The notes beneath the pieces were generated by a model that was not told where the DNA came from, did not search any database, and worked only from the letters and a program-made list of their open reading frames with translations. A DNA stretch of 64,000 nt from Aplysia californica (lineage: Eukaryota), in the NCBI RefSeq assembly GCF_000002075.1, contig NW_004797572.1, positions 421,828 through 485,827 on the forward strand, written 5' to 3'. A program made the position numbers and the translations under genes. Shown here one piece after another: positions 6,455 through 61,021 of this stretch. How positions within the stretch are numbered: the stretch's first letter is position 1; the number at the start of each line of letters is the position of its first letter.

Positions 6455-6662
6455 TTCACTTCCGCGATCATAGTTACTTCCCTGATCGCTGATTGTGTTT
6501 CAAGCAGGCAGCCATAACAGTCACGTGACAATTATCCCTTCCGATGAGTGAGCACGCATCCTGTCGCTAAGGATAACAATATGGCGTCTTGTTTGTAAAT
6601 CACAGTCAAAACAGAAGCTGTTGGCTACCGCTCGCATAATTCTGGTGTTCTTTCCGTGAAAA
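6455..6662 (+). promoter_or_regulatory. CFAP206 promoter and putative non-coding exon 1
   Basis: ETS-like ACTTCCG (~6458), palindromic E-box GTCACGTGAC 6520-6529, RFX X-box-like GTCGCTAAGGATAAC 6563-6577, YY1-like AATATGGCG from 6578, splice donor GTAAGA at 6663; matching acceptor CCACAG at 10479, just before the ATG exon. Confidence 0.55.
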
Positions 6663-40599: not shown

Positions 40600-41994
40600 T
40601 TATACTAAAATAGTTCCTTTCCCAGCAAAGTACATCTCAATATCCTCCAAAGATTTACCCTTTGTTTCAGGAATATATTTTCCAACAAACCACACAGCTA
40701 TAGCACAACAAATACTAAAGAAATAGAAAATACCATCATTGCCCATAATCTGTTGAAAAGTAGCAAACTGGCTGGTTACAATAAAAGCTGATCCCCATGA
40801 AGCAATGATTGCAACTGATCCTGCAGTACCTTTGCAGCGAGTCGGAATCATTTCTGACATGATAAGCACAGGGACAGGACCCCAACCAAGAGAAAATCCA
40901 ATTATGTAAGTAGTAAGGCAACAAACTGGTAACCATGTTTTAAGAGACTGTCCAAGATAACCTGAACTAGACAGCTTGTAATACAGCCCAAATAAGAAGA
41001 GCGTTAAGGCCATCACAAGACCGCCAATGTGAAGAAGTTTCTTTCTTCCGGCACTGTCCATGAGATAAACAGCAACAATAGTGGCAAATATTTGGACAAT
41101 TCCAATTATTTCAGTAGCAGCGTAAGCAAAATCACCGACAGCAGTTTCAAAAATTGAAATGGAATAAAACATGACAGCGTTTATACCAGAAAGCTGCTGA
41201 AAAATCATAATGCAAACAACTAAAAATATAGGATGTGACAGTTCTCTTTTCATTAGCATTTCTGAAAATGAAACACTCTCTTCAGGATCTGAACCTTCCT
41301 CAATTTCTTTGCATTCTTCACTGACATCAGTGTGTGGATCTCTGAGACTACTCAGAGCTTTGAAAGCATCTGCTTTTCTGTTTTTCATGAGCAGCCACCG
41401 AGGAGTTTCAGGAATGAAAAATGTCAATAGCCCACCTAGCACACTGGGAATAATGCATAAGTTTGCAAGCCATCTCCATTCAAAAAATGACCCCAAAATA
41501 TAAGCTGCGGCTATTCCAATGGTGATGAGCAGTTGCACACTTGAACCCAAGATGCCACGCATGGAAGGAGTGGAGATTTCAGCAATGTACATTGGGACAC
41601 ACACTGTGACCATTCCACTCCCAATGCCAGTTAAAAATCTACCGAAGTTGCATTGGTATGTTTCTGAGGCTGAAGCAATGATGAAAAATCCAGCTGCAAA
41701 CGGTATCGATAAAAATGTCAGAGAAAGCTTTCGCCCTGCCTTTTCGATGAGCCATCCACCCAGCGGACCACCAAGCAATGCACCGATCGTAAGAAGAGAT
41801 CCAAACCAACTGCTGTCTTCCTTCTTAATAACTCCACGTTTGATCATGCTAGGGATAGCTGGAGAGCTGTAGCCAATAGCTAATCCAAAATTCATCGCTC
41901 CTAATAAAGCACAAAAGGCAATGAAGATAAGCTTTTGGTGAGATCCTTCATACTTTGTGTTGATCACACGCCCAGCGGTTTGTTTGTCGGCCAT
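40600..41994 (-). CDS. MFS sugar porter, class III GLUT (SLC2A8/SLC2A6) / Tret1-like, single coding exon, 464 aa
   Basis: Uninterrupted ORF from ATG 41994 (AAGATGG context). About 12 hydrophobic segments. Motifs GRK, PMYIAEIS, PETPRWLL, QQLSGINAVMFY, GRKKLL, GWGPVP..SE, PETKGKSLEDIE. Confidence 0.95.
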   Translation of the reverse strand: MADKQTAGRVINTKYEGSHQKLIFIAFCALLGAMNFGLAIGYSSPAIPSMIKRGVIKKEDSSWFGSLLTIGALLGGPLGGWLIEKAGRKLSLTFLSIPFAAGFFIIASASETYQCNFGRFLTGIGSGMVTVCVPMYIAEISTPSMRGILGSSVQLLITIGIAAAYILGSFFEWRWLANLCIIPSVLGGLLTFFIPETPRWLLMKNRKADAFKALSSLRDPHTDVSEECKEIEEGSDPEESVSFSEMLMKRELSHPIFLVVCIMIFQQLSGINAVMFYSISIFETAVGDFAYAATEIIGIVQIFATIVAVYLMDSAGRKKLLHIGGLVMALTLFLFGLYYKLSSSGYLGQSLKTWLPVCCLTTYIIGFSLGWGPVPVLIMSEMIPTRCKGTAGSVAIIASWGSAFIVTSQFATFQQIMGNDGIFYFFSICCAIAVWFVGKYIPETKGKSLEDIEMYFAGKGTILV

Positions 41995-42024: not shown

Positions 42025-42100
42025 ATGACGTCCAAAGCGTGACCTCCTCGCAGGCAGGCTGAGGCAGGTCATATTTAGGTCATGTGACATGTCATGTGAT
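42025..42100. promoter_or_regulatory. Sugar-porter proximal promoter: CRE-like site, perfect DR5, two CLEAR/M-box-like E-boxes
   Basis: TGACGT ~42026; AGGTCA-TATTT-AGGTCA 42066-42082; GTCATGTGAC 42079-42088 and GTCATGTGAT 42091-42100. Confidence 0.55.
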
Positions 42101-42531
42101 CTGCTGTGTCTTCACGCTTCATTCGCGAAGCCAGACGCAAGTTACATAACAGTAAAACTTAACAGCACGAAATTAAGAAGCCAGAGGGTTATCTGTCTCC
42201 TATTTGTGTAAAAGAACGAAAGAACATAATCCACACAAAAGCAGTAAGGAAATATTGTCTAATCTATAACGTTCACCTATCTAGAATCTATGTTTACTTA
42301 TTTGTGTTCAGATCTATTATAAATATTGGACTATTCTAATCTAGAGAGCATGACTATGACATGATTAATAAATCTAATAAATTATAATGATTTTGTAATG
42401 ATGTGCAACGTGCTGAGGCTAGACAGCGAGACTAGAGTCTCGTTCACTAGATCTAGATCTAGATCTAGACAGCGACTAGATCTAGATTCTAGATCCACCA
42501 GCGATCGCCTTTGGTATGAGCTGTTCTAATA

Positions 42532-50775: not shown

Positions 50776-51253
50776 AATTTTAAAAAATTCTATTTAAATG
50801 TGCCCCATGTTCGAAAATTGATCACGCTGAAGTACAGAAATGAGTGTAGTCAAAACATATATTGCCCTATGTAATATAAGGGCTAAAGAAGCTGCAGGTT
50901 TGTGTAATAAGTTACACAAGATGACTCCTGGGGTGGTGCTGCATGAGGTGATTGGTTTACATGAACTGTGGACTCTGGTAAATTTTCCATAGTATAGAGG
51001 TGTTAGCTTTTTGTTGCAGCCTTGGCACTTAATATGTAGGTCAGAGTGTCTTTTCTTTTATTGTGCTAAAACTTTATCTCGGCATAGATCTAGTTATTAT
51101 CAGTGTTAGTACTTGATGGATTAAGTCAAGAGAGTCCTTAAAACCCGAAGTTCTGTTATCATTGATGGAAAGATAAAGTTGTCTAAAGTCACTTTTCGCA
51201 TTTGAGCAAGTAGAGAGCAATCAGTTGGATCTATTTCCTCAGATCGTGCAAAG

Positions 51254-51354
51254 ATGACCAAGTCTCTGGTGTTACTCATTGTCTGTGCTTGCATTGGATC
51301 AAGCTGGTGCGGTCCCTTTGAATTTCCATTTCATGCATCTTGCAATATAGACTG
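51254..51354 (+). CDS. Secreted protein coding exon 1 (signal peptide)
   Basis: Acceptor TTCCTCAG at 51242, AAGATG start, donor TG|gtaagt. Confidence 0.85.
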
Positions 51355-54300
51355 GTAAGTGCTTATATTTTCAATTGATGACACTTTTGAATGTTTTAAG
51401 TACCGTTTAGCCCATATTTTTTTCTTCATCTCGATCGCATTGCTCTTGAAGTGTAGTATCAAATTTCATATATACTGGGCCATCCCGCTCAGTTGTTCTG
51501 TTGGCCAGTACAGCCTCTGTTTGAGTGGACCCCTTTGTTGAGGTTTACAGCTCTGCACTGCAATTGCCTGGTAGGTCCTCACAGGGTTAAAGCCATATTT
51601 ACAAATACCGTCTTTAAATGTCATTTTTGTAGTTTTACATGGTATTATGGTTCCCTAGATAGTGCCTGCCTTGAGGCCCAATACCTCCAGTTTCAGCACT
51701 CCAGTTCCAGATCCTGAGACCTACCCTTGAAGTACAGGGAGGATTCCACCTTTGGGAGGACTCATAAATGCGATCCTTTTCCTCATGGTGCACCTGGTAG
51801 TGGATTCATAGGGCATATCGTGATGTGGTAGTGCCACCTACCACCTCATCCCATCCTGGTAAGAGCATTGCCAGTTGGTCCAGGGGCTGCTTATTCAACA
51901 TATTCACAGCTTATCTTCATAACAGTGACCGTTCCCTTTCTGTCACCATGCTGAGACCGCCCAGGTCGGGGGGATGGTTGCCCCTAACCTAGATCCCTTA
52001 TCATTTCAGTTATCTGTCTGTCTTTCATACAATTTGTGAGGGGGGAAAAGCTTCTTTCAGAGATTGAAAACAAATTACAGACTTAAATTTTTTCAAAAAC
52101 TCGTTTGAAATACCCTTATAATAATTTGGCTAGACCTTAATTATCATGTTTTTTTTAAGTACAGGAAGGTTGTTTTATGAATAAGAGAATTAATCTTGCA
52201 CAGGTTTTTACATTCAATATGGATTGCACATATCTCTGTCTATTCTTATCCTCAGGACTTTTGGGGCAACCTGTCAGAATGTCAGTCAAATCATCCAAGC
52301 TCAAATACAAAAATGGAGTGGGACTTCATGTGGCTCAGGAGAAAAATGTAGATATGAAGTAGGTAACCTGAGATTTGTTTATTTTGCTTTAATCAAATGT
52401 TAGCTCTTTGGGGGAGGAGGTAAGTGTTTTACAGCGCTAGCAACTGCATAAGCTCATATGAGCGTGCAGGACACCTTAAGCATTTTCAATTTCGTAGGAA
52501 TTTATTTTGAATTTTTTACAGGGTGGCAACCAAAGCCTACTCTTATCGCTTTTACGACCACCAAGGGATCTTTAACTGAAAGACAGCAGTAAGGAGCAGC
52601 CAAGGAGTAGCTGTAGAAAGGCAGCAGAAAAAGAGCCCAGAGGAGGGGGCAAAGAGGAAGCCGGTGGGGGGGGGGGGGGTGTTTAGAAAGTGGAGACGAA
52701 AACAGACAGCAGAACTTGATTAGAGAGCAGGAAAGGTGAAGGAGGAAATTTTTTAAAGAACATTTTCTATTGCTGTCAGGTTTTGAACGCGGGACCTATT
52801 GAATGAGAGGCAAACACCTAATGTCTAGACTATGAGAGCCCCCTGCTCTTGCTTTACATAACTCAAGCTCCATAAATTGTCAAACTGCTCAAATCAACAG
52901 ATCCTTATGTTTGATTTTTGCTTGTGGCTTTTGTTGGTTGTTCAAGTTATTACAACACCAANNNNNNNNNNNNNNNNNNNNNNNNNNNNNNNNNNNNNNN
53001 NNNNNNNNNNNNNNNNNNNNNNNNNNNNNNNNNNNNNNNNNNNNNNNNNNNNNNNNNNNNNNNNNNNNNNNNNNNNNNNNNNNNNNNNNNNNNNNNNNNN
53101 NNNNNNNNNNNNNNNNNNNNNNNNNNNNNNNNNNNNNNNNNNNNNNNNNNNNNNNNNNNNNNNNNNNNNNNNNNNNNNNNNNNNNNNNNNNNNNNNNNNN
53201 NNNNNNNNNNNNNNNNNNNNNNNNNNNNNNNNNNNNNNNNNNNNNNNNNNNNNNNNNNNNNNTTAAGCTATTTTCTGTTGATTCCCACTCAGGGAAGTTA
53301 TTTTTCCGAGCACAATGGCGCCGCTTAAGATTTTGGCTCGTCTAAGAACCTGTGTATAACAGAATGTTAATTCTCCATAATGTGCCTGTCACTGTCAGTC
53401 TGCCTGAGAACCAGGTTTGATTTCAGGGCGAAAAACTTTTCTTTGCTGCTTTACCCACACCTTCCACTTTCAAAGGAGCCCTCTTCAAGGCCAGATCATC
53501 AATACAGGAACTGTACTGATAAGCAGAGCTGGTTGTAACGAAGTACAAGTAGGCTACTCCGGTACTTGTACTTACGTTACAATTTTCGGTACTTTTACTG
53601 TACTCCGGTACATTTTGAGAATCAGTACTTTTACTGTACTCTGATACTTTTTATAAAAGTACTTTTGAGTATTTTTAAAGTACATTTTGAGTACTTTTGA
53701 AGCTTAATGAAAGGCATTTCTGATCATAATTAAGGGAACAAACACCCGGGCGGGCATAGCCGATCAACCAAGAGTTAAAACTTGAGATCAAAGAACGGCC
53801 AGTGGCGTCAAAGATCAGCCACTCTTGTGAATGAGATCACAAGTGTTGTAGAACTCAATGAAACAGTACAATGTTTGCCCCAGACGGGATCACACCCCAA
53901 ACTCGCACCTGAGCTCGCCAACTAAACTTACATCACTGGATGGGTGGGTATGGCTTACAAGTTCGCTCCAGGCAGGATCACATCGAACTGTGAACTCTTC
54001 CCAGACCATTGAAGGCAGTTTTTCCTTATTCCCGAATTTGCAAGACAGCCTGAATTTTAATTGGTGTGGTCACAACGTAATGGTGCGTAATGAAAAAGGC
54101 GGGGGGACTCAATCAGAGACGGAAGGCTGAAATATTTGGACAGGTAAAGGGGAGGGGCAACTGGATAAACATAGATATAAAGATCTTGAGACTCACGATA
54201 GGCTAATGAGTGTATATGCATGCCTCATGCCACCATGCAACTGTGATTGGTCATAAAGGTTGACCACTCTTTGCTCGCCAAATGTCATTAAACCCACACA

Positions 54301-57300
54301 GGGGTCACATCAGTTCATGGGTCACTGTTAATTCTTCCTTGGCTTCGTCGGCTAAGATCCCATATTTCCCTTGTTCCCGAGCACTGGGATCTTAGGCGGA
54401 GACTACCGTAGTAGAGAATCTTTGGTTACACTACACTTACTAGACTCTAGGAAACTACATGTATTTTGGTTTGCTGTGGGCGCCGTGGACTGCTCAGTGT
54501 GACCAAAATCTGTCTTACCACTATTATAATCAATTGAAACTGAAACTGAGTTTTCAATGTATATCTAACAAATTTTTAGGCTATCTAAATTTCTTTTTAA
54601 CTTTTTTTTTGTGGTTTATGCTTAAGGCTACCTTAATTCCTTGAGGATTTGTTAATGAAGAATTCAAGGCACTTTTCCATTTCTTTGCTGGCCATTTTCA
54701 TCTATTCTATGTTTGTTAAGGGCAACTTTGTCTCTACATTTTCCAATTTGGATACTTTTCCTACTTTCCGACCTCTTGGACTGACTAATATTTTGATCAC
54801 GTTGTCTCTGCTCAAACAAGTTTTATTCATAATATCACTTACTCACTAGTTGCGTCTTTTTGTTTGTTGGGGTTTTTTTCTTCTATTTCACGGACCTTTT
54901 CCACCTATGTTCAGTGCGTATATTCAAATGCTTTGTATACTGTTTACATTATTAGTAATAAATGGCCTAATTTGTCGAATATACTGGATAAAGTTTTTTA
55001 ATATGATGTTTTGCATTAGCACTGAAGTGTTTTAGCATTATATTAGCGGAAAGTACTCAAATTGTACTCATAAGTACTTTTTTCAAAAGTACTTGTAATC
55101 AAGTACATTTTACAGGAAAGTACTTTTACTGTACTTAAGTACACATTTCAGATTGTACTAAAATTTGTACTTAAGTACCTTTTTAAAAGTACTTTAACAG
55201 CTCTGCTGATAAGTTTAATAAAGCTAACACAGTTGTGATGTGTTTCAAACTGCACCACAAATTATCCAAAGCAAAGACCCCACCATAGATGCAGGCAGAT
55301 GAAATGATTTGATACTATACCTCATTACACTTGGTGATTCTTAATAAAGAAACAACAGCTGGACAGAAGGGTTGGGGAAGTCCTGCGGTCAATAAAATCT
55401 ACACCCTGTGTATGTAAACACTTACACAAATGATTTTTTCGGCATGCACATTAGCTCTGCCAAATGGGTCAAATTACGTACATGTAGTGAAGATGTTATT
55501 GGTTTTTAATTGGTACATGTACTATCTCTTGTTCCTCTCATGTGGTCAAGAGCATCCAATTGTCTTTTAAAAAGTGGCTAGTTCATGTTCATGTTTTCCC
55601 TTCACTGACGCAGCATTGCAACTGGTGCTGTATCATAGTTTCAACATGCAATCAAATCAAGTTGACAATCTCACATGATAAAAATTCACTCTGTTCTACT
55701 TTTGCTTGATTACTAAATCATAAGTAGAATTTGAAGATAACTTTAGCTCAATGAAGGTTGAGGATCAATACTAATCTCTTGTTCTCACTTGTGCCCAAAA
55801 CACTCCACACCGCTCAAAACATGTAACCCACATTAATTTTTTTCCAAAGTATGCCTCTCTTTCTCTCTTCCTTGGAGTGTCTTCAGCATACAGATCATTA
55901 TTTCATCATGGAATAAACAAGGGAAGTCAACAGGTAGATACTGAGTTGTGCCACTGAAAATCTGCCTAAAGAAGCTGACTGGCCTGAGACTGACACTGAA
56001 CCCACTTTTCTTGTTGCCTGATTACTGGGCTTTGAGGCCGTGACCACTATACCTCTCCGTTTGTTCTTAGATTCCATGTTCCACTTATCCTGGATTGGTT
56101 CCGATAGACATAATCAGAGAAGCCTGCCTCTTGAATTAACTGAACTGTGTTGATGATCATGTAAAACCTTTGCATTCGATGTCATTGATCGTCAACCTTC
56201 CTTGAGCTAATATTATCTTCAAATAATTCTTTTCATGATTACTTAATCAAGCTCAAAATCCCTTTAAGCCAAAATCAATCATTGGCTGTCAGTTTGGAGT
56301 GATGGAATGGTCCCAAACATTCCTGGCTTTTCCATTTTCATTAAATGTATTATTGAATATGTCAATGAACTTTAATAATGGTTTCACCCTTAAGCAAAAT
56401 TTTTTTGACATTAGAATTAGACTGATTTTTTAAAACAGTTATCTACCTGTTGACTTCCCTTGTTTATTCCATGCTGTTCATTTGTTTTTCTTCGGGTGGG
56501 GGGCGGGGAGAGAAGGGAGGTATATTATTTTTGCCTTTGATTGGAGGACATCATTGATGTGTTTGCTATTTTTTGTTGTCCCCTGTTGTGTCCGTTTTAT
56601 TTTTATTTTCTTGCTCAGCTGTGGGAAATCGTTATCAAGTGGTATCATTATAAAGTGTGATAGGTTAAGGTTGATAACATTTTATCTTGAAAATGGCCCT
56701 TCCAGCCTATTGCTATTCTTGAATACAGGAGGGACTTGTATTCGTTCCTGTAGAATGTTATTGAAATACAGAACTACAAAGGCTGTTTTTTTTAATGCTT
56801 ATATAATAGATTATTGTGTAACGGGTTTTTTTAATGTTCTTTTTCAGTTTGTCAGCTTTGATAACAACATACTCAAGGCAAAACACACAACACCAGTGAA
56901 GCATTATGCTGATGACCTCACTTTTGTTTTCAAGCCCAACAGTTCTCTGTGTCTGGTGAATGTGAGTATTGTATGATATGTGAAATAAAGCATGCATGTT
57001 GTTAATCCTATATGAGCACAAAACATTTTCCATGCCTTCATTGTGGAGATCATGGCAAAAGCTTGACAAGGAGAGAGGAAAAGAGAGATAGAGATTGGCA
57101 ATTATTCTCGGAAAGCATACTGTTGTTTCAATTTTTTTAAGGTTGCCTTCTTTTCAACCAATTCATTCAATATAACATGGAGAATAAAGCTCCGTCATAA
57201 AACAGATTGGCTGCTAAGTGTAAGATTCTGTTACGTCACTTTTCATAATGGCATAAAGTGAAGTTTTACATTAAGCAATAGAGATCATGTTCGTCCATGA

Positions 57301-59137
57301 TTCGCTGAGAAAATATGAATTGATGTACATGGTCACAAGTGCCAGTGTATAATTATATTAGAACTGATTAATATGCACCTTATATAAAAACAGTCTCTTG
57401 TCTTTTCCCTATTGTGCTTTTCTGATACTGTTTTTTTTTGTACAGGGTAAAAGTTCCTCTGAGACTTGGTATGCTGTGCTGGATGATGGCACAAACTATT
57501 GCAATCTGCACAACCTTATTACAGGTAAGCAAAATCGCTCAAGTGCTTGAACGTTATTTCTTACCCTTATTTTCGTCAGAGTGTCATTTAAGTAGCCATC
57601 TCCATGCATAGCAAAGCACTTTGTCTCCGTACTAATGCCACTCGACAATTTTTGGGAAAACCAGATCTAATCAATGTTAAAGTGGTCACCTATAAATAGC
57701 ACAGATATGAATCCTACAGGTATGTGAAGTCCCATGAAACCGCAGCTAAAGAAAAGCAACTTTACTCCCAAAACAGACCCTTTGTTTGCAACTCTCTGTG
57801 ACATTTTGGATAAAATGACACATTGTTATGTCCAAAAATTTAAGAGTTGATGCCCAAAGGGTTCATGTACTAAAGAAAACCAATTGCTCCTAAGCAGACT
57901 AACAATGGGCACATTTAATGTTATTTCCAAGTTTTGTGTGGTATTTGTGATTGCTCTGTTTTCCATTTTGTTTTAAACTATCGTGACAAAATATAATAAC
58001 AAAATATAGTTTACTGCAGAGACAAAATTCTCCATTCATTGGATGCAATGTGTGTCCATTCTATTTATATTGATACTCCTCAATACACGCGCGAAGAGAA
58101 TTCTATGTTTCTTTGCTTTTAACACAATGTTGCAAAGCTTGATTTTTGAAAGTCAGTTTTGAGTACCATATCTCGGGCGTTTCTTATGATAGATGATTTA
58201 TTAAGGTGTCAGATGATGCAGAATTTATTAAACTTTAAATTGATATGCCATATGAGTGGGTAATGCGAGGCTTTAACATGATTGGGTGATTACATTTTCA
58301 AGTTTCTTTTGGACGCCTCTGTAGTATATATATGTGTTGTTGACATGTCCATAAGATGTATCTAAGCATGCTCTGGGGGTTGAGAGAGATCAGACAGGTG
58401 GACAGCACTCCTATGGTTATGTGTGTGCATGTAAAGTGAGAGGAGCATGAACATTGTGGGGGTGGAATGTCAGAAGAGAAGCAGATAGAACCGTCATAAA
58501 TTTTTTATCCCCGGCTACTGAAGAGTGATAGACATAGTTTCACCTAATGAGTTTCCTGTTAGTCTGTGGAACCAAACATACCATATAAGCCATACTGCAA
58601 CTTTGTTTTGCAAGTAATACATCAATTGACACAGTCATGCATTTGAACAAATCAGCCTTTTGACACAGTTGGCTCAGTGCCTGCAATTATAAATCTGAAA
58701 AGCTCTCATTGCCACTGAAAGTGAAGGTGTCTGTGGTGTGGGACTTAAGAAATTCGCTATTGCTCACAGAAGGCCTCGATCCTATGTGGGGAGAATTTTT
58801 ACTAAGTATCCGTCTTTTTGCTGGGACATCGTATCCATTTCATCTTGAGTTGGCCCTGACAGGGAGGGTTGAAGCACTCATTCTAAATGATTAAAACTGT
58901 GTCAGTGGGGGCATAAAACACTTACATTTTTAAAGACAAAAAGAATGTCAAGCTGATGACTTCATTGAAACTGAGTTTTACTGTATGCTTGGGAGACAGA
59001 TGATGAAGTTGGTTTTTATGATTCCTTTCTTATTGTCCTCCTCAGGTTCTGGTCTTGATAAGCTTAAACCATACAAGGAGAGCACCAGTAACTCAAAATG
59101 CACCCAGTATTCTTCAGCAAACTGTGAGAAGTACTGA
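51254..59137 (+). CDS. Secreted Cys-rich uncharacterised protein, DUF1499-like, 5 coding exons, 162 aa
   Basis: join(51254-51354,52256-52358,56848-56961,57446-57524,59046-59137) = 489 nt, all GT-AG, phases 2,0,0,1 consistent: MTKSLVLLIVCACIGSSWCGPFEFPFHASCNIDWTFGATCQNVSQIIQAQIQKWSGTSCGSGEKCRYEFVSFDNNILKAKHTTPVKHYADDLTFVFKPNSSLCLVNGKSSSETWYAVLDDGTNYCNLHNLITGSGLDKLKPYKESTSNSKCTQYSSANCEKY*. Confidence 0.9.
52256..52358 (+). CDS. Secreted protein coding exon 2
   Basis: ctcag|(W)TFGATCQNV...GEKCRYE|gtaggt. Confidence 0.85.
52424..52843 (-). mobile_element. tRNA-derived SINE (same family), inverted, internally deleted
   Basis: Reverse complement matches the head, pyrimidine-rich middle and tail of 61022-61512. 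Confidence 0.65.
53524..55205. mobile_element. Non-autonomous hAT transposon, 1.68 kb
   Basis: Perfect 8-bp TSD CTGATAAG (53516-53523, 55206-55213); TIR CAGAGCTG; dense AGTAC/GTACT subterminal repeats. Confidence 0.9.
56848..56961 (+). CDS. Secreted protein coding exon 3
   Basis: ttttcag|FVSF...HTTPVKHYADDLTF...CLVN|gtgagt. Confidence 0.88.
57446..57524 (+). CDS. Secreted protein coding exon 4
   Basis: tacag|GKSSSETWYAVLDDGTNYCNLHNLIT|gtaagc. Confidence 0.88.
58140..58322. mobile_element. Tc1/mariner terminal fragment
   Basis: Ends GTTTCTTTTGGACGCCTCTG|TA. Confidence 0.4.
59046..59137 (+). CDS. Secreted protein terminal coding exon
   Basis: ctcag|GSGLDK...CTQYSSANCEKY*; candidate AATAAA at 59716-59721. 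Confidence 0.88.
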
Positions 59138-61021
59138 TGTTCATGCAGGAAATCTAGTTAGTTTTTAGAGGATTGAACACAAAGCTAGTATTACTTTTTT
59201 CTCTTTTGCTTTTTACATTATTAACCCATTCCCTAAGTGCCGCATGAAATCATACTGCAGATCTCATTACTGCTGGCTACATGTGCATCGTATGCTGTGG
59301 GGGATCAAGGAATATTTTTCCTCCCTCACTGAGACGTGGGACAGCGTGTGTGGGGGAAATTAATTTAATACTCTCATGAATAATGCATCTACCGCCTTTC
59401 TGTCTCTTACTTGTGTTCATTTGCTGGCACTCTTAACAGAAATAGCTTCTCGTTGACCAAAATCATTTGATTCTCATTTATGTCTAGATGTTGAAATGCT
59501 CCAAGGAAAGTGAAAATTTTGCTATTTATTTTTATTTTAATGAAAATTATGACTTGAGTCTTTCTATGACAGAAAAGAAACTGATGTTTAATATCAAATA
59601 TCATAATATAGTAGTATAAGTGATTGTGATTTGTGAAGCCCTGTGTATTTTTTAATAAGCAATAATAATTATAATCCACTATGCATGGCCACTCGGGCTA
59701 AATGAGCACTTGGGCAATAAATTGAATTAGGAAGGAGTGGGTATGAATTTTTCTTGTAAAAGTATGATGTACATCCGAGGAAAAGATAAATTGTTGTTCA
59801 TGTTTCTCAGTGGTTGTTTTTTGGATGAACTTGCTTGTACTTGCCTTCGAAATTCTAGTAAATTTTTTTCATTTTTGATATTTCAGTTGTTTCTCTGAGT
59901 TTATTTAGTTCAAATGTGCTTCTTATATAAATCCTTTTCTTCAGTTATTGACATCGCAGGGTGAAGGGAGATGTGATATAAGACACAAGTGCGAGAGTGG
60001 ATCAGATAGTAATGGAATTTGCCACAAATGCTAAAATGTTACCTTAAGTCTTAAATGCAGTACACCTAATTGGTTGCTTTTAAGCACAAGGGGGCTATCC
60101 GGAAAAATGCTGTTTTGAAAAAATCGAAGGTAAAGTTTTTGAACCCTTGTTAAGTTTCTTTAAAAGACGAGAGTTTTCACTACGACCAAAAAAAATACAC
60201 ACCAGTGAAACCAAACTTATCCTATAGGGAGGGCAATGCCTATTTTTGGTGTAGGTCAAGATTTCTGGAAACCCCTGAAATCTGGGTTAGCCCGCTGTCC
60301 TTAAAAGCAACAAATTAATCTATACCATGTCTTCTCTCGAACCAACCATTGGAGTTTCATCATCATGTGACGTCTCTCTAACTCTTGATTATTTTTATGA
60401 CATCAGAAACTACGGATTGTTTGCGCTCTGGAGGAAACAAGATGATGCTCACAAAAGAAAATTTTCATTTTACATCTGTATGAACTTTGAACTTGACAAA
60501 GCATGAAAATTAGCAAAGTGTTTGTGCTGAATGTGCTTTTTTTTATATGACACAGTATATCACTGGGAAGAAAAATTTTTTGAATGGAGACGCACAGTGC
60601 AGTAACCCACATTCTAGCCACCCAAGTTCCCTTGTGAAGAGAAAACCGTTGATGTTACCTAGCATTACATTGCGCAAGATCCCCATATCTCTTTAAAAGA
60701 ACTTAATGACATGTCTGGGCTTTTGTTTGGTTTGGTTGAAAACATTATTCGTGGAGGACTCCATGTTAAAAAAGTATGTTCCCGTTGGATAACCCATTTA
60801 CTAAGGAATATAAAAGGAGTGTAAATGTGTCACAAAATTGCTCAGTAGATTTGGAACCCGTGGGCCCACGTGACTTACAGCCTTTGTCTTAAGGGAGGAA
60901 ACACAGATTCCCATTTTCAGAATTCCATCACCACGGCTGAATTACTTGTCACGATAGATTTAAAAAATGAGACATGCCTGTCATTTTGCTTCCAGGATTT
61001 CAAAGAAGAAAGGGGGGGGGG

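Follow-up and report, generated by a model that had tools for sequence, protein, structure and literature searches.

A spliced gene of Aplysia californica and its eukaryote-wide family of eight-cysteine proteins: an apparent remote relation to DUF1499 and a possible lysosomal role

What kind of protein is encoded at positions 51254..59137 of a 64,000-nucleotide (nt) window of Aplysia californica DNA, and what might it do? The window is the whole stretch that was analysed (contig NW_004797572.1 of assembly GCF_000002075.1, positions 421,828 to 485,827, forward strand). A reading of its letters, called the original prediction below, had placed there a hidden gene of five exons for a secreted protein resembling bacterial DUF1499. 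We found that the gene is real, spliced and transcribed. Its product belongs to a family that is eukaryote-wide, from algae to frogs, and appears to be a remote homologue of DUF1499, under the formal cut-off. For its function, we tentatively favored delivery to lysosomes or lysosome-related organelles together with non-enzymatic binding of lipids or similar hydrophobic molecules by a helix-grip domain.

The five coding exons gave a frame of 489 nt, with all introns GT..AG, encoding 162 amino acids (aa) and a stop. All four coding joints were present in one contig of 1,572 nt from run X6 (depth 181), for which the RNA type was the tool's guess. Raw poly(A) RNA reads came from runs X21-X23 of one study. 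Three reads of X21 and X23 crossed joints (two at joint 1 and one at joint 4), and poly(A) tails were found at 59878/59880 in X21-X23, with 23-37 tailed reads per listed site. These results confirmed the in-frame splicing that had been predicted, by the RNA junctions proposed for checking it. The count of five exons held for the coding part and was revised for the transcript, which gained a non-coding exon at its 5' end, ~9 kb upstream. We infer a six-exon transcript whose first intron spans ~9 kb, and in which the first joint is drawn from the contig's loose 5' end. The 125-nt leader of the transcript contained no ATG. The parts of the gene were as follows.

42130..42243, plus strand: non-coding first exon (5' edge taken from the contig's 114 loose letters; a GT donor follows)
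51243..51354, plus strand: transcript exon 2, which is coding exon 1 (AG acceptor at 51242, ATG at 51254, coding part 51254-51354), with the predicted signal peptide, H27 and C30
52256..52358, plus strand: coding exon 2, with helix 1, C40, C59 and C65
56848..56961, plus strand: coding exon 3, with the central strands and H81, T83, Y88, D90, D91 and C103
57446..57524, plus strand: coding exon 4, with S109, S111, the W114-Y115 aromatic loop, D119, N123, C125, N126 and helix 2
59046..59137, plus strand: coding part of the last exon, with an extra strand, the Cys-bonded tail (C151, C159) and TGA
59138..59880, plus strand: 3' untranslated region, ending at the poly(A) sites 59878/59880

Exon 3 was buried, as had been noticed, in a stop-free frame of 180 codons (56434-56973), and this exon alone gave a weak DUF1499 match (E 0.046). 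An alternative donor of exon 2 at 52363 was ruled out because it broke the reading frame. The gene was not hidden. The protein was identical to the RefSeq entry 'uncharacterized protein LOC101846747 [Aplysia californica]', so the gene is already catalogued and not new. A search of the Aplysia genome for paralogues matched only the five exons, and a PF07386 profile search of the genome gave no match; neither search excludes distant copies. The signal peptide was predicted from hydrophobicity and alignment only. The leader contained Cys at 11, 13 and 19, and the mature part at 30, 40, 59, 65, 103, 125, 151 and 159. N-glycosylation sequons were present at N42 and N99.

The homologue search gave 220 proteins at E<=0.001 out of 236 candidates, and an exhaustive search gave 428 representatives at the same threshold. 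Conservation counts below rest on the best 120 of the 220, and 30 proteins were looked up by name. The 120 came from sponges, Trichoplax, cnidarians, molluscs, nemerteans, a brachiopod, a bryozoan, a rotifer, echinoderms, hemichordates, sharks, crustaceans and a springtail, with 45-68% local identity to the Aplysia protein; from sponge to shark, identity was ~45-65%. The look-ups named members in brown algae, Phaeothamnion, the diplonemid Flectonema, Ancoracysta, ants, teleosts and a frog. These results did not agree with an animal branch, since protists and algae were included, nor with a restriction to aquatic animals, since the ants and the springtail are terrestrial. Among the named matches (best 120 of 220), amniotes, Drosophila, nematodes, fungi and plants were absent; no dedicated search was made for them. 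Nothing in the data suggested the horizontal transfer into animals that had been raised as a possibility, and no origin or transfer is claimed here because a quick tree left 33 of 70 forks open.

Seven Cys, Y67, T83, D90, S109, D119, T122, N123, N129 and T152 were invariant in the 120 homologues, and H27, C59, H81, Y88, S111, W114, Y115 and Q153 were nearly invariant. The mature part had eight Cys in 116 homologues and nine in the other 4, as expected for a disulfide-rich secretory product. Both predicted sequons exist in the Aplysia protein, while their positions were not conserved (N42 in 4/120, N99 in 14/120); at least one sequon was found anywhere in 96/120. Molluscs had several paralogues per genome. 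Teleost paralogues kept the Cys and lost D90, Y88, Y115 or N123, and ant paralogues also lost or changed D90. Two tandem copies of the domain were observed in P0145, P0213, P0223 and P0241, of which P0213 is from Flectonema.

Direct search with the eukaryotic alignment confirmed no prokaryotic member (17 pattern matches, 0 confirmed), and a plasmid tblastn match (E 3) was regarded as noise. The PDB gave 0 matches by sequence and profile, and NCBIfam had no family for the Aplysia protein. The Atlas label 'C-type lectin domain-containing' was rejected because no family lay over the aligned part; it probably derives from fusion records such as P0243. In a literature search that left subscription papers mostly outside, no paper turned up on the family, on its fold or on a link between the teleost member wu:fc46h12 and DUF1499, and the available portions of the DUF1499 literature contained nothing on animals.

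The relation to DUF1499 (PF07386), a family of bacteria and plastids whose function is unknown, was examined at the level of single proteins and of profiles. The Aplysia protein (P0001) scored 17.7 bits (E 0.005) against the Pfam model, below the gathering cut-off of 22.6 bits. Some homologues exceeded the cut-off (P0128 with 23.4 bits, P0064 with 24.1 bits), P0077 carried a precomputed DUF1499 label, and a few family members were already labelled so by automatic database annotation. DUF1499 was matched at E<=0.1 by 89 of the 120 homologues (best 9.3e-6), and the next family by 7. For comparison, 80 bacterial loci were fetched with a pattern built from the motif of the original prediction. Of their ORFs (open reading frames), 70 were aligned, all of them DUF1499, and 10 were dropped as redundant, partial or having long uncertain N-termini. 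The hhalign comparison of the eukaryotic with the bacterial profile gave a probability of 91.4 and a pairwise E of 9.3e-7 over 70 columns with 19% identity. Thus the proposed link was found to be real but remote: it failed at the Pfam cut-off and was recovered as homology between profiles.

The residues D90, D91, S109, S111, D119, G121 and N123 aligned with bacterial DUF1499. S-x-S and D-x-G-x-N were invariant in the bacterial set by construction, as they belonged to the selecting pattern. The match also extended outside this pattern, with T83/S, Y88/F, D90/D and D91/D. Both models shared the order strand-helix-four strands-helix, and both families have an N-terminal hydrophobic leader or anchor. 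In contrast, the eight Cys, the C-terminal strand and tail, H27/H81 and a longer aromatic loop belong to the Aplysia family. The column of H81 was mostly Phe in the 70 bacterial proteins, without a His counterpart. The two arginines of the bacterial pattern aligned to K108 and E112, the unselected bacterial R141 (69/70) aligned to N126, and the bacterial N-terminal CPxxPNC motif (59-60 of 70) had no eukaryotic counterpart.

The AlphaFold2 models of the Aplysia protein and of a cyanobacterial DUF1499 member had predicted local distance difference test (pLDDT) values of 86.8 and 92.4. They were compared via element order and shared matches, not by direct superposition. The top structural match of both was the Chk1 KA1 domain 5wi2, with Z 10.0 for the Aplysia and 10.4 for the cyanobacterial model, followed in both by AMPK, Aha1, BamC and Bet v1-like folds. 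This was consistent with the structural agreement that had been expected. For the Aplysia model, the KA1 match had a root-mean-square deviation (rmsd) of 2.3 over 93 aligned residues, BamC gave Z 9.0 (rmsd 3.1, 99 aligned), a Bet v1-like protein gave Z 9.0 (rmsd 3.4, 110 aligned), and the START/Bet v1 superfamily gave Z 7-9. A small helix-grip (KA1/BamC/START-like) domain was thus predicted. The likeness to KA1, BamC and AHA1/START/Bet v1 proteins covered residues 25-143 with Z ~8-10, whereas identity was 6-16% and these proteins are cytosolic or bacterial and have no disulfide frame. KA1 domains have a basic surface and bind acidic phospholipids; the median net charge of the Aplysia family was −3, in contrast to that surface, and that of the Aplysia protein itself +1. 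Spermine synthase, the sole Foldseek match at E<=0.001 (TM 0.37), was not taken as functional. A homodimer prediction scored 0.00, but it was run without an alignment and gave no evidence either way.

Judged by the strand alternation in the model, the side of the sheet turned to helix 2 would carry H81, T83, D90, S109 and S111, close to D119, N123 and N126. Eukaryotic proteins have His at 81 and lack Arg at 126, and bacterial ones show the opposite arrangement, suggesting that a buried Asp exchanged one partner for the other. Instead of a catalytic site, the residues in common with DUF1499 may make up a buried structural network, because they erode in teleost paralogues and the invariant bacterial arginines are absent. 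The polar residues pointed out in the original prediction were near-invariant; the catalytic site offered for them is doubtful.

One indirect clue to a lysosomal location came from membrane-anchored relatives. A long N-terminus ahead of a transmembrane helix was found in 28 of the 120 homologues, which are predicted type II membrane proteins. YxxPhi or [DE]xxxL[LI] was present in 21 of these 28 tails compared with 6.0 in shuffles, and none of 5000 shuffles reached 21. After de-replication, 16 of 21 tails had a motif compared with 3.8 in shuffles. Of the 42 tyrosines in these tails, 23 were followed at +3 by a bulky hydrophobic residue; at other offsets the count was 3-8. YxxPhi and dileucine motifs are endocytic and lysosomal sorting signals. 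In the quick tree, soluble and anchored forms were sisters in oyster, nemertean and crinoid pairs.

Fusions pointed in the same direction. The domain was joined to one to three lipocalins in six proteins (P0132, P0175, P0176, P0185, P0283, P0285) and to a papain-family protease in one (P0171). Two further records were observed. In P0286, a beta-galactosidase isoform of a sponge has the final portion of the domain at its end, and in P0243 a C-type lectin is attached to a fish-like member; both may be read-through gene models. A comparable case is EPDR1. The available text of PMC6363788 describes this ependymin-related family as small, disulfide-bonded lysosomal and secreted lipid binders with a bacterial envelope fold, a cathepsin-fused clade and a fish-specific clade, and a lipid transporter or activator role is proposed there. 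The likeness is one of working, as it would be to NPC2 and GM2AP, two other accessory proteins of the lysosomal lumen. EPDR1 has a LolA fold and was absent from the sequence and fold matches listed.

The promoter gave a modest clue to lysosomal co-regulation. Two features were located upstream of the first exon.

42079..42099, no strand assigned: two tandem M-box (TCATGTGA) motifs, predicted MiT/TFE sites, ~30 bp before the first exon
40600..41994, minus strand: uninterrupted ORF of a head-to-head sugar porter (464 aa, Sugar_tr E 6e-91)

The M-boxes sit in a gap of ~135 bp common to both genes. According to the available text of PMC6355916, from which the motif definition was taken, M-box and CLEAR elements in lysosomal genes are targets of MiT/TFE factors. 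The tandem pattern matched the genome 47 times (41 distinct sites), and the reversed control matched it 4 times. The scan of the 40 other sites covered 150 of 689 frames at the first 25 and ~108 selected frames at the last 15. A beta-hexosaminidase (site L128/L174, G000:C20) and a sulfatase (L139/L172, G000:C275) started less than 100 bp from a tandem M-box at two of these 40 sites, hinting at an MiT/TFE lysosomal regulon in Aplysia. The sugar porter, which we take to be GLUT8/Tret1-like, had no N-terminal dileucine motif. Further single CLEAR/M-box motifs were observed at window positions 6520, 668 and 60363.

The only family member found with experimental data was the teleost homologue wu:fc46h12. 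The named record from Megalobrama was 42% identical over 141 aa and had all eight Cys, with D90Q, N123T and the loss of Y88 and Y115. In the available text of 10.1101/314534, wu:fc46h12 was expressed like gch2 in xanthophores at 24 hours post-fertilization, was lost in sox10 mutants, and was also expressed in heart and dorsal aorta. The zygotic knockout was viable, and maternal-zygotic mutants had mostly transient heart oedema. It was a probe in a pigment-cell study (PMC6588384) and was present in one expression table (PMC5752677), each as far as the accessible text goes. In spotted scat skin it moved with apod, scarb1, stard10 and bco2 and was grouped with carotenoid and pteridine genes (PMC11773731, available part). 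The pterinosomes of xanthophores are regarded as lysosome-related organelles that contain concentric lipids (PMC12146710, available part).

We favored a lysosome and a greasy ligand because of the sorting motifs, the lipocalin and cathepsin fusions, the tandem M-boxes and the xanthophore-marker homologue. An endolysosomal location was judged rather probable, and if the protein is located there, a carrier role was judged probable to the same degree. The protein would enter the endoplasmic reticulum by its predicted signal peptide and form four disulfides. It would then reach the endolysosome, as a soluble form in Aplysia and by YxxPhi/dileucine tails in type II relatives, and the M-boxes would provide co-regulation with lysosomal genes. 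The conserved hairpin tip (84-88) and the aromatic loop (114-120) may engage membrane or ligand, and the ligand may be handed on to a lipocalin, a hydrolase or another partner. D90/S109/S111/D119/N123 with H81 would mainly hold the sheet against helix 2. A wider reading is possible, though on balance doubtful: ancient, eukaryote-wide cofactors for lipids or carotenoids in lysosomes and pigment organelles, with the DUF1499 fold, MiT/TFE boxes and soluble as well as self-sorting forms, of which wu:fc46h12 was recruited to xanthophores.

Several points weighed against the lysosomal carrier. The Aplysia protein itself has no sorting-motif tail, and the 15 more divergent tails, several of them insect-like, were not significant (5/15 compared with 3.3; 905 of 5000 shuffles). 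A single stramenopile event may lie behind the lipocalin fusions, since three of them formed a supported group in the quick tree. The homologue wu:fc46h12 is a diverged paralogue. Z values of 8-10 barely exceeded the tool background of 7-8. The tandem M-box pattern was derived from the Aplysia locus itself, and some of its matches lay in tandem repeats. Of the 40 other sites, 33 had no confident gene identification, and five lay in or beside genes for a ketoacyl synthase, a G-protein-coupled receptor, Schlafen, a Mind bomb SH3 domain and an M13 peptidase. The M-boxes may serve only the sugar porter, which is itself only putatively lysosomal. Finally, an enzyme would account just as well for the near-invariance of H27, H81, D90, S109, S111, D119 and N123 from protists to frog.

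A small lumenal enzyme (hydrolase, lyase or isomerase) was the strongest alternative, and we considered it somewhat unlikely. Its site would lie under the W114-Y115 loop, where the sheet faces helix 2, and consist of H81, D90, S109, S111, D119, N123 and N126. These positions vary little or not at all in the 120 homologues and among protists, sponges and vertebrates, and the helix-grip neighbours include cyclases, norcoclaurine synthase and hydroxynitrile lyase. However, D90 was lost or changed in fish and ant paralogues, the best fold match, KA1, is poor in cavities, and bacterial DUF1499 has no counterpart of H81 and has Arg at N126. A structural network with hydrophobic loops was favored over an enzyme because of these apparently swapped partners and the loss of residues in teleosts with the Cys kept.

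A secreted or cell-surface binder of mucus, haemolymph, matrix or immune function, with tail motifs used only for surface recycling, appeared unlikely. The predicted signal peptide and four predicted disulfides, the variable glycosylation, the mollusc paralogues and the heart and dorsal aorta expression reported for wu:fc46h12 are all consistent with it, and YxxPhi serves endocytosis too. Against it stand the M-boxes, the fusions to cathepsin and lipocalin, and the sponge-to-shark identity, which is higher than one would expect of an immune or mucus protein. A lumenal lectin or glycolipid-headgroup binder assisting lysosomal glycosidases was very unlikely. Sugar sites typically have an aromatic pair next to Asp/Asn/Ser, and the sugar porter and the records P0286 and P0243 would fit, but these are single records that look like gene-model read-through, and no lectin was among the fold matches listed. 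The weakest alternative concerned descent: a DUF1499 likeness of common fold without common ancestry would suit the score of 17.7 bits, the short profile alignment and the motif overlap between selection and match, but the 89 of 120 DUF1499 matches compared with 7 for the next family, and the four residue matches outside the pattern, made it highly unlikely.

Other features were observed around these subjects. In bacteria, no family occurred more than 4 times among the 123 of 155 ORFs scanned beside DUF1499 at the 80 loci; the metallo-beta-lactamase fold occurred 4 times and TerC, HSP20, M20 peptidase and BamB-like proteins 2 times each. A Chamaesiphon genome had two DUF1499 genes side by side (L048:2956-3941). 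A longer bacterial subtype, with several N-terminal hydrophobic segments and the motif 'HD(I/V)(T/S)TD', was found at L011, L021, L022, L053, L059, L061 and L068. Within the window, minus-strand RNA reads accumulated on intronic repeat fragments at 52533-52576 and 54600-55000. These many reads had loose ends and mismatches and probably come from a transcribed repeat located elsewhere. A minus-strand segment at ~52770-52840 looked tRNA-like by eye and is possibly the head of a short interspersed element; ARAGORN found no tRNA in the window. Three long minus-strand frames at 1-2513 resembled pieces of a retrotransposon without long terminal repeats (endonuclease and reverse-transcriptase-like by eye).

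Since the gene was already catalogued, its value lies in the family, which is conserved from sponge to shark, reaches protists and has no described function. The combination of DUF1499, endolysosomal sorting and a zebrafish xanthophore marker with a knockout offers a cheap route to the function of both the family and the bacterial domain. If the lysosomal carrier reading is true, the family would represent a new class of lysosomal accessory protein, unseen by lysosome proteomics in species that do not have it.

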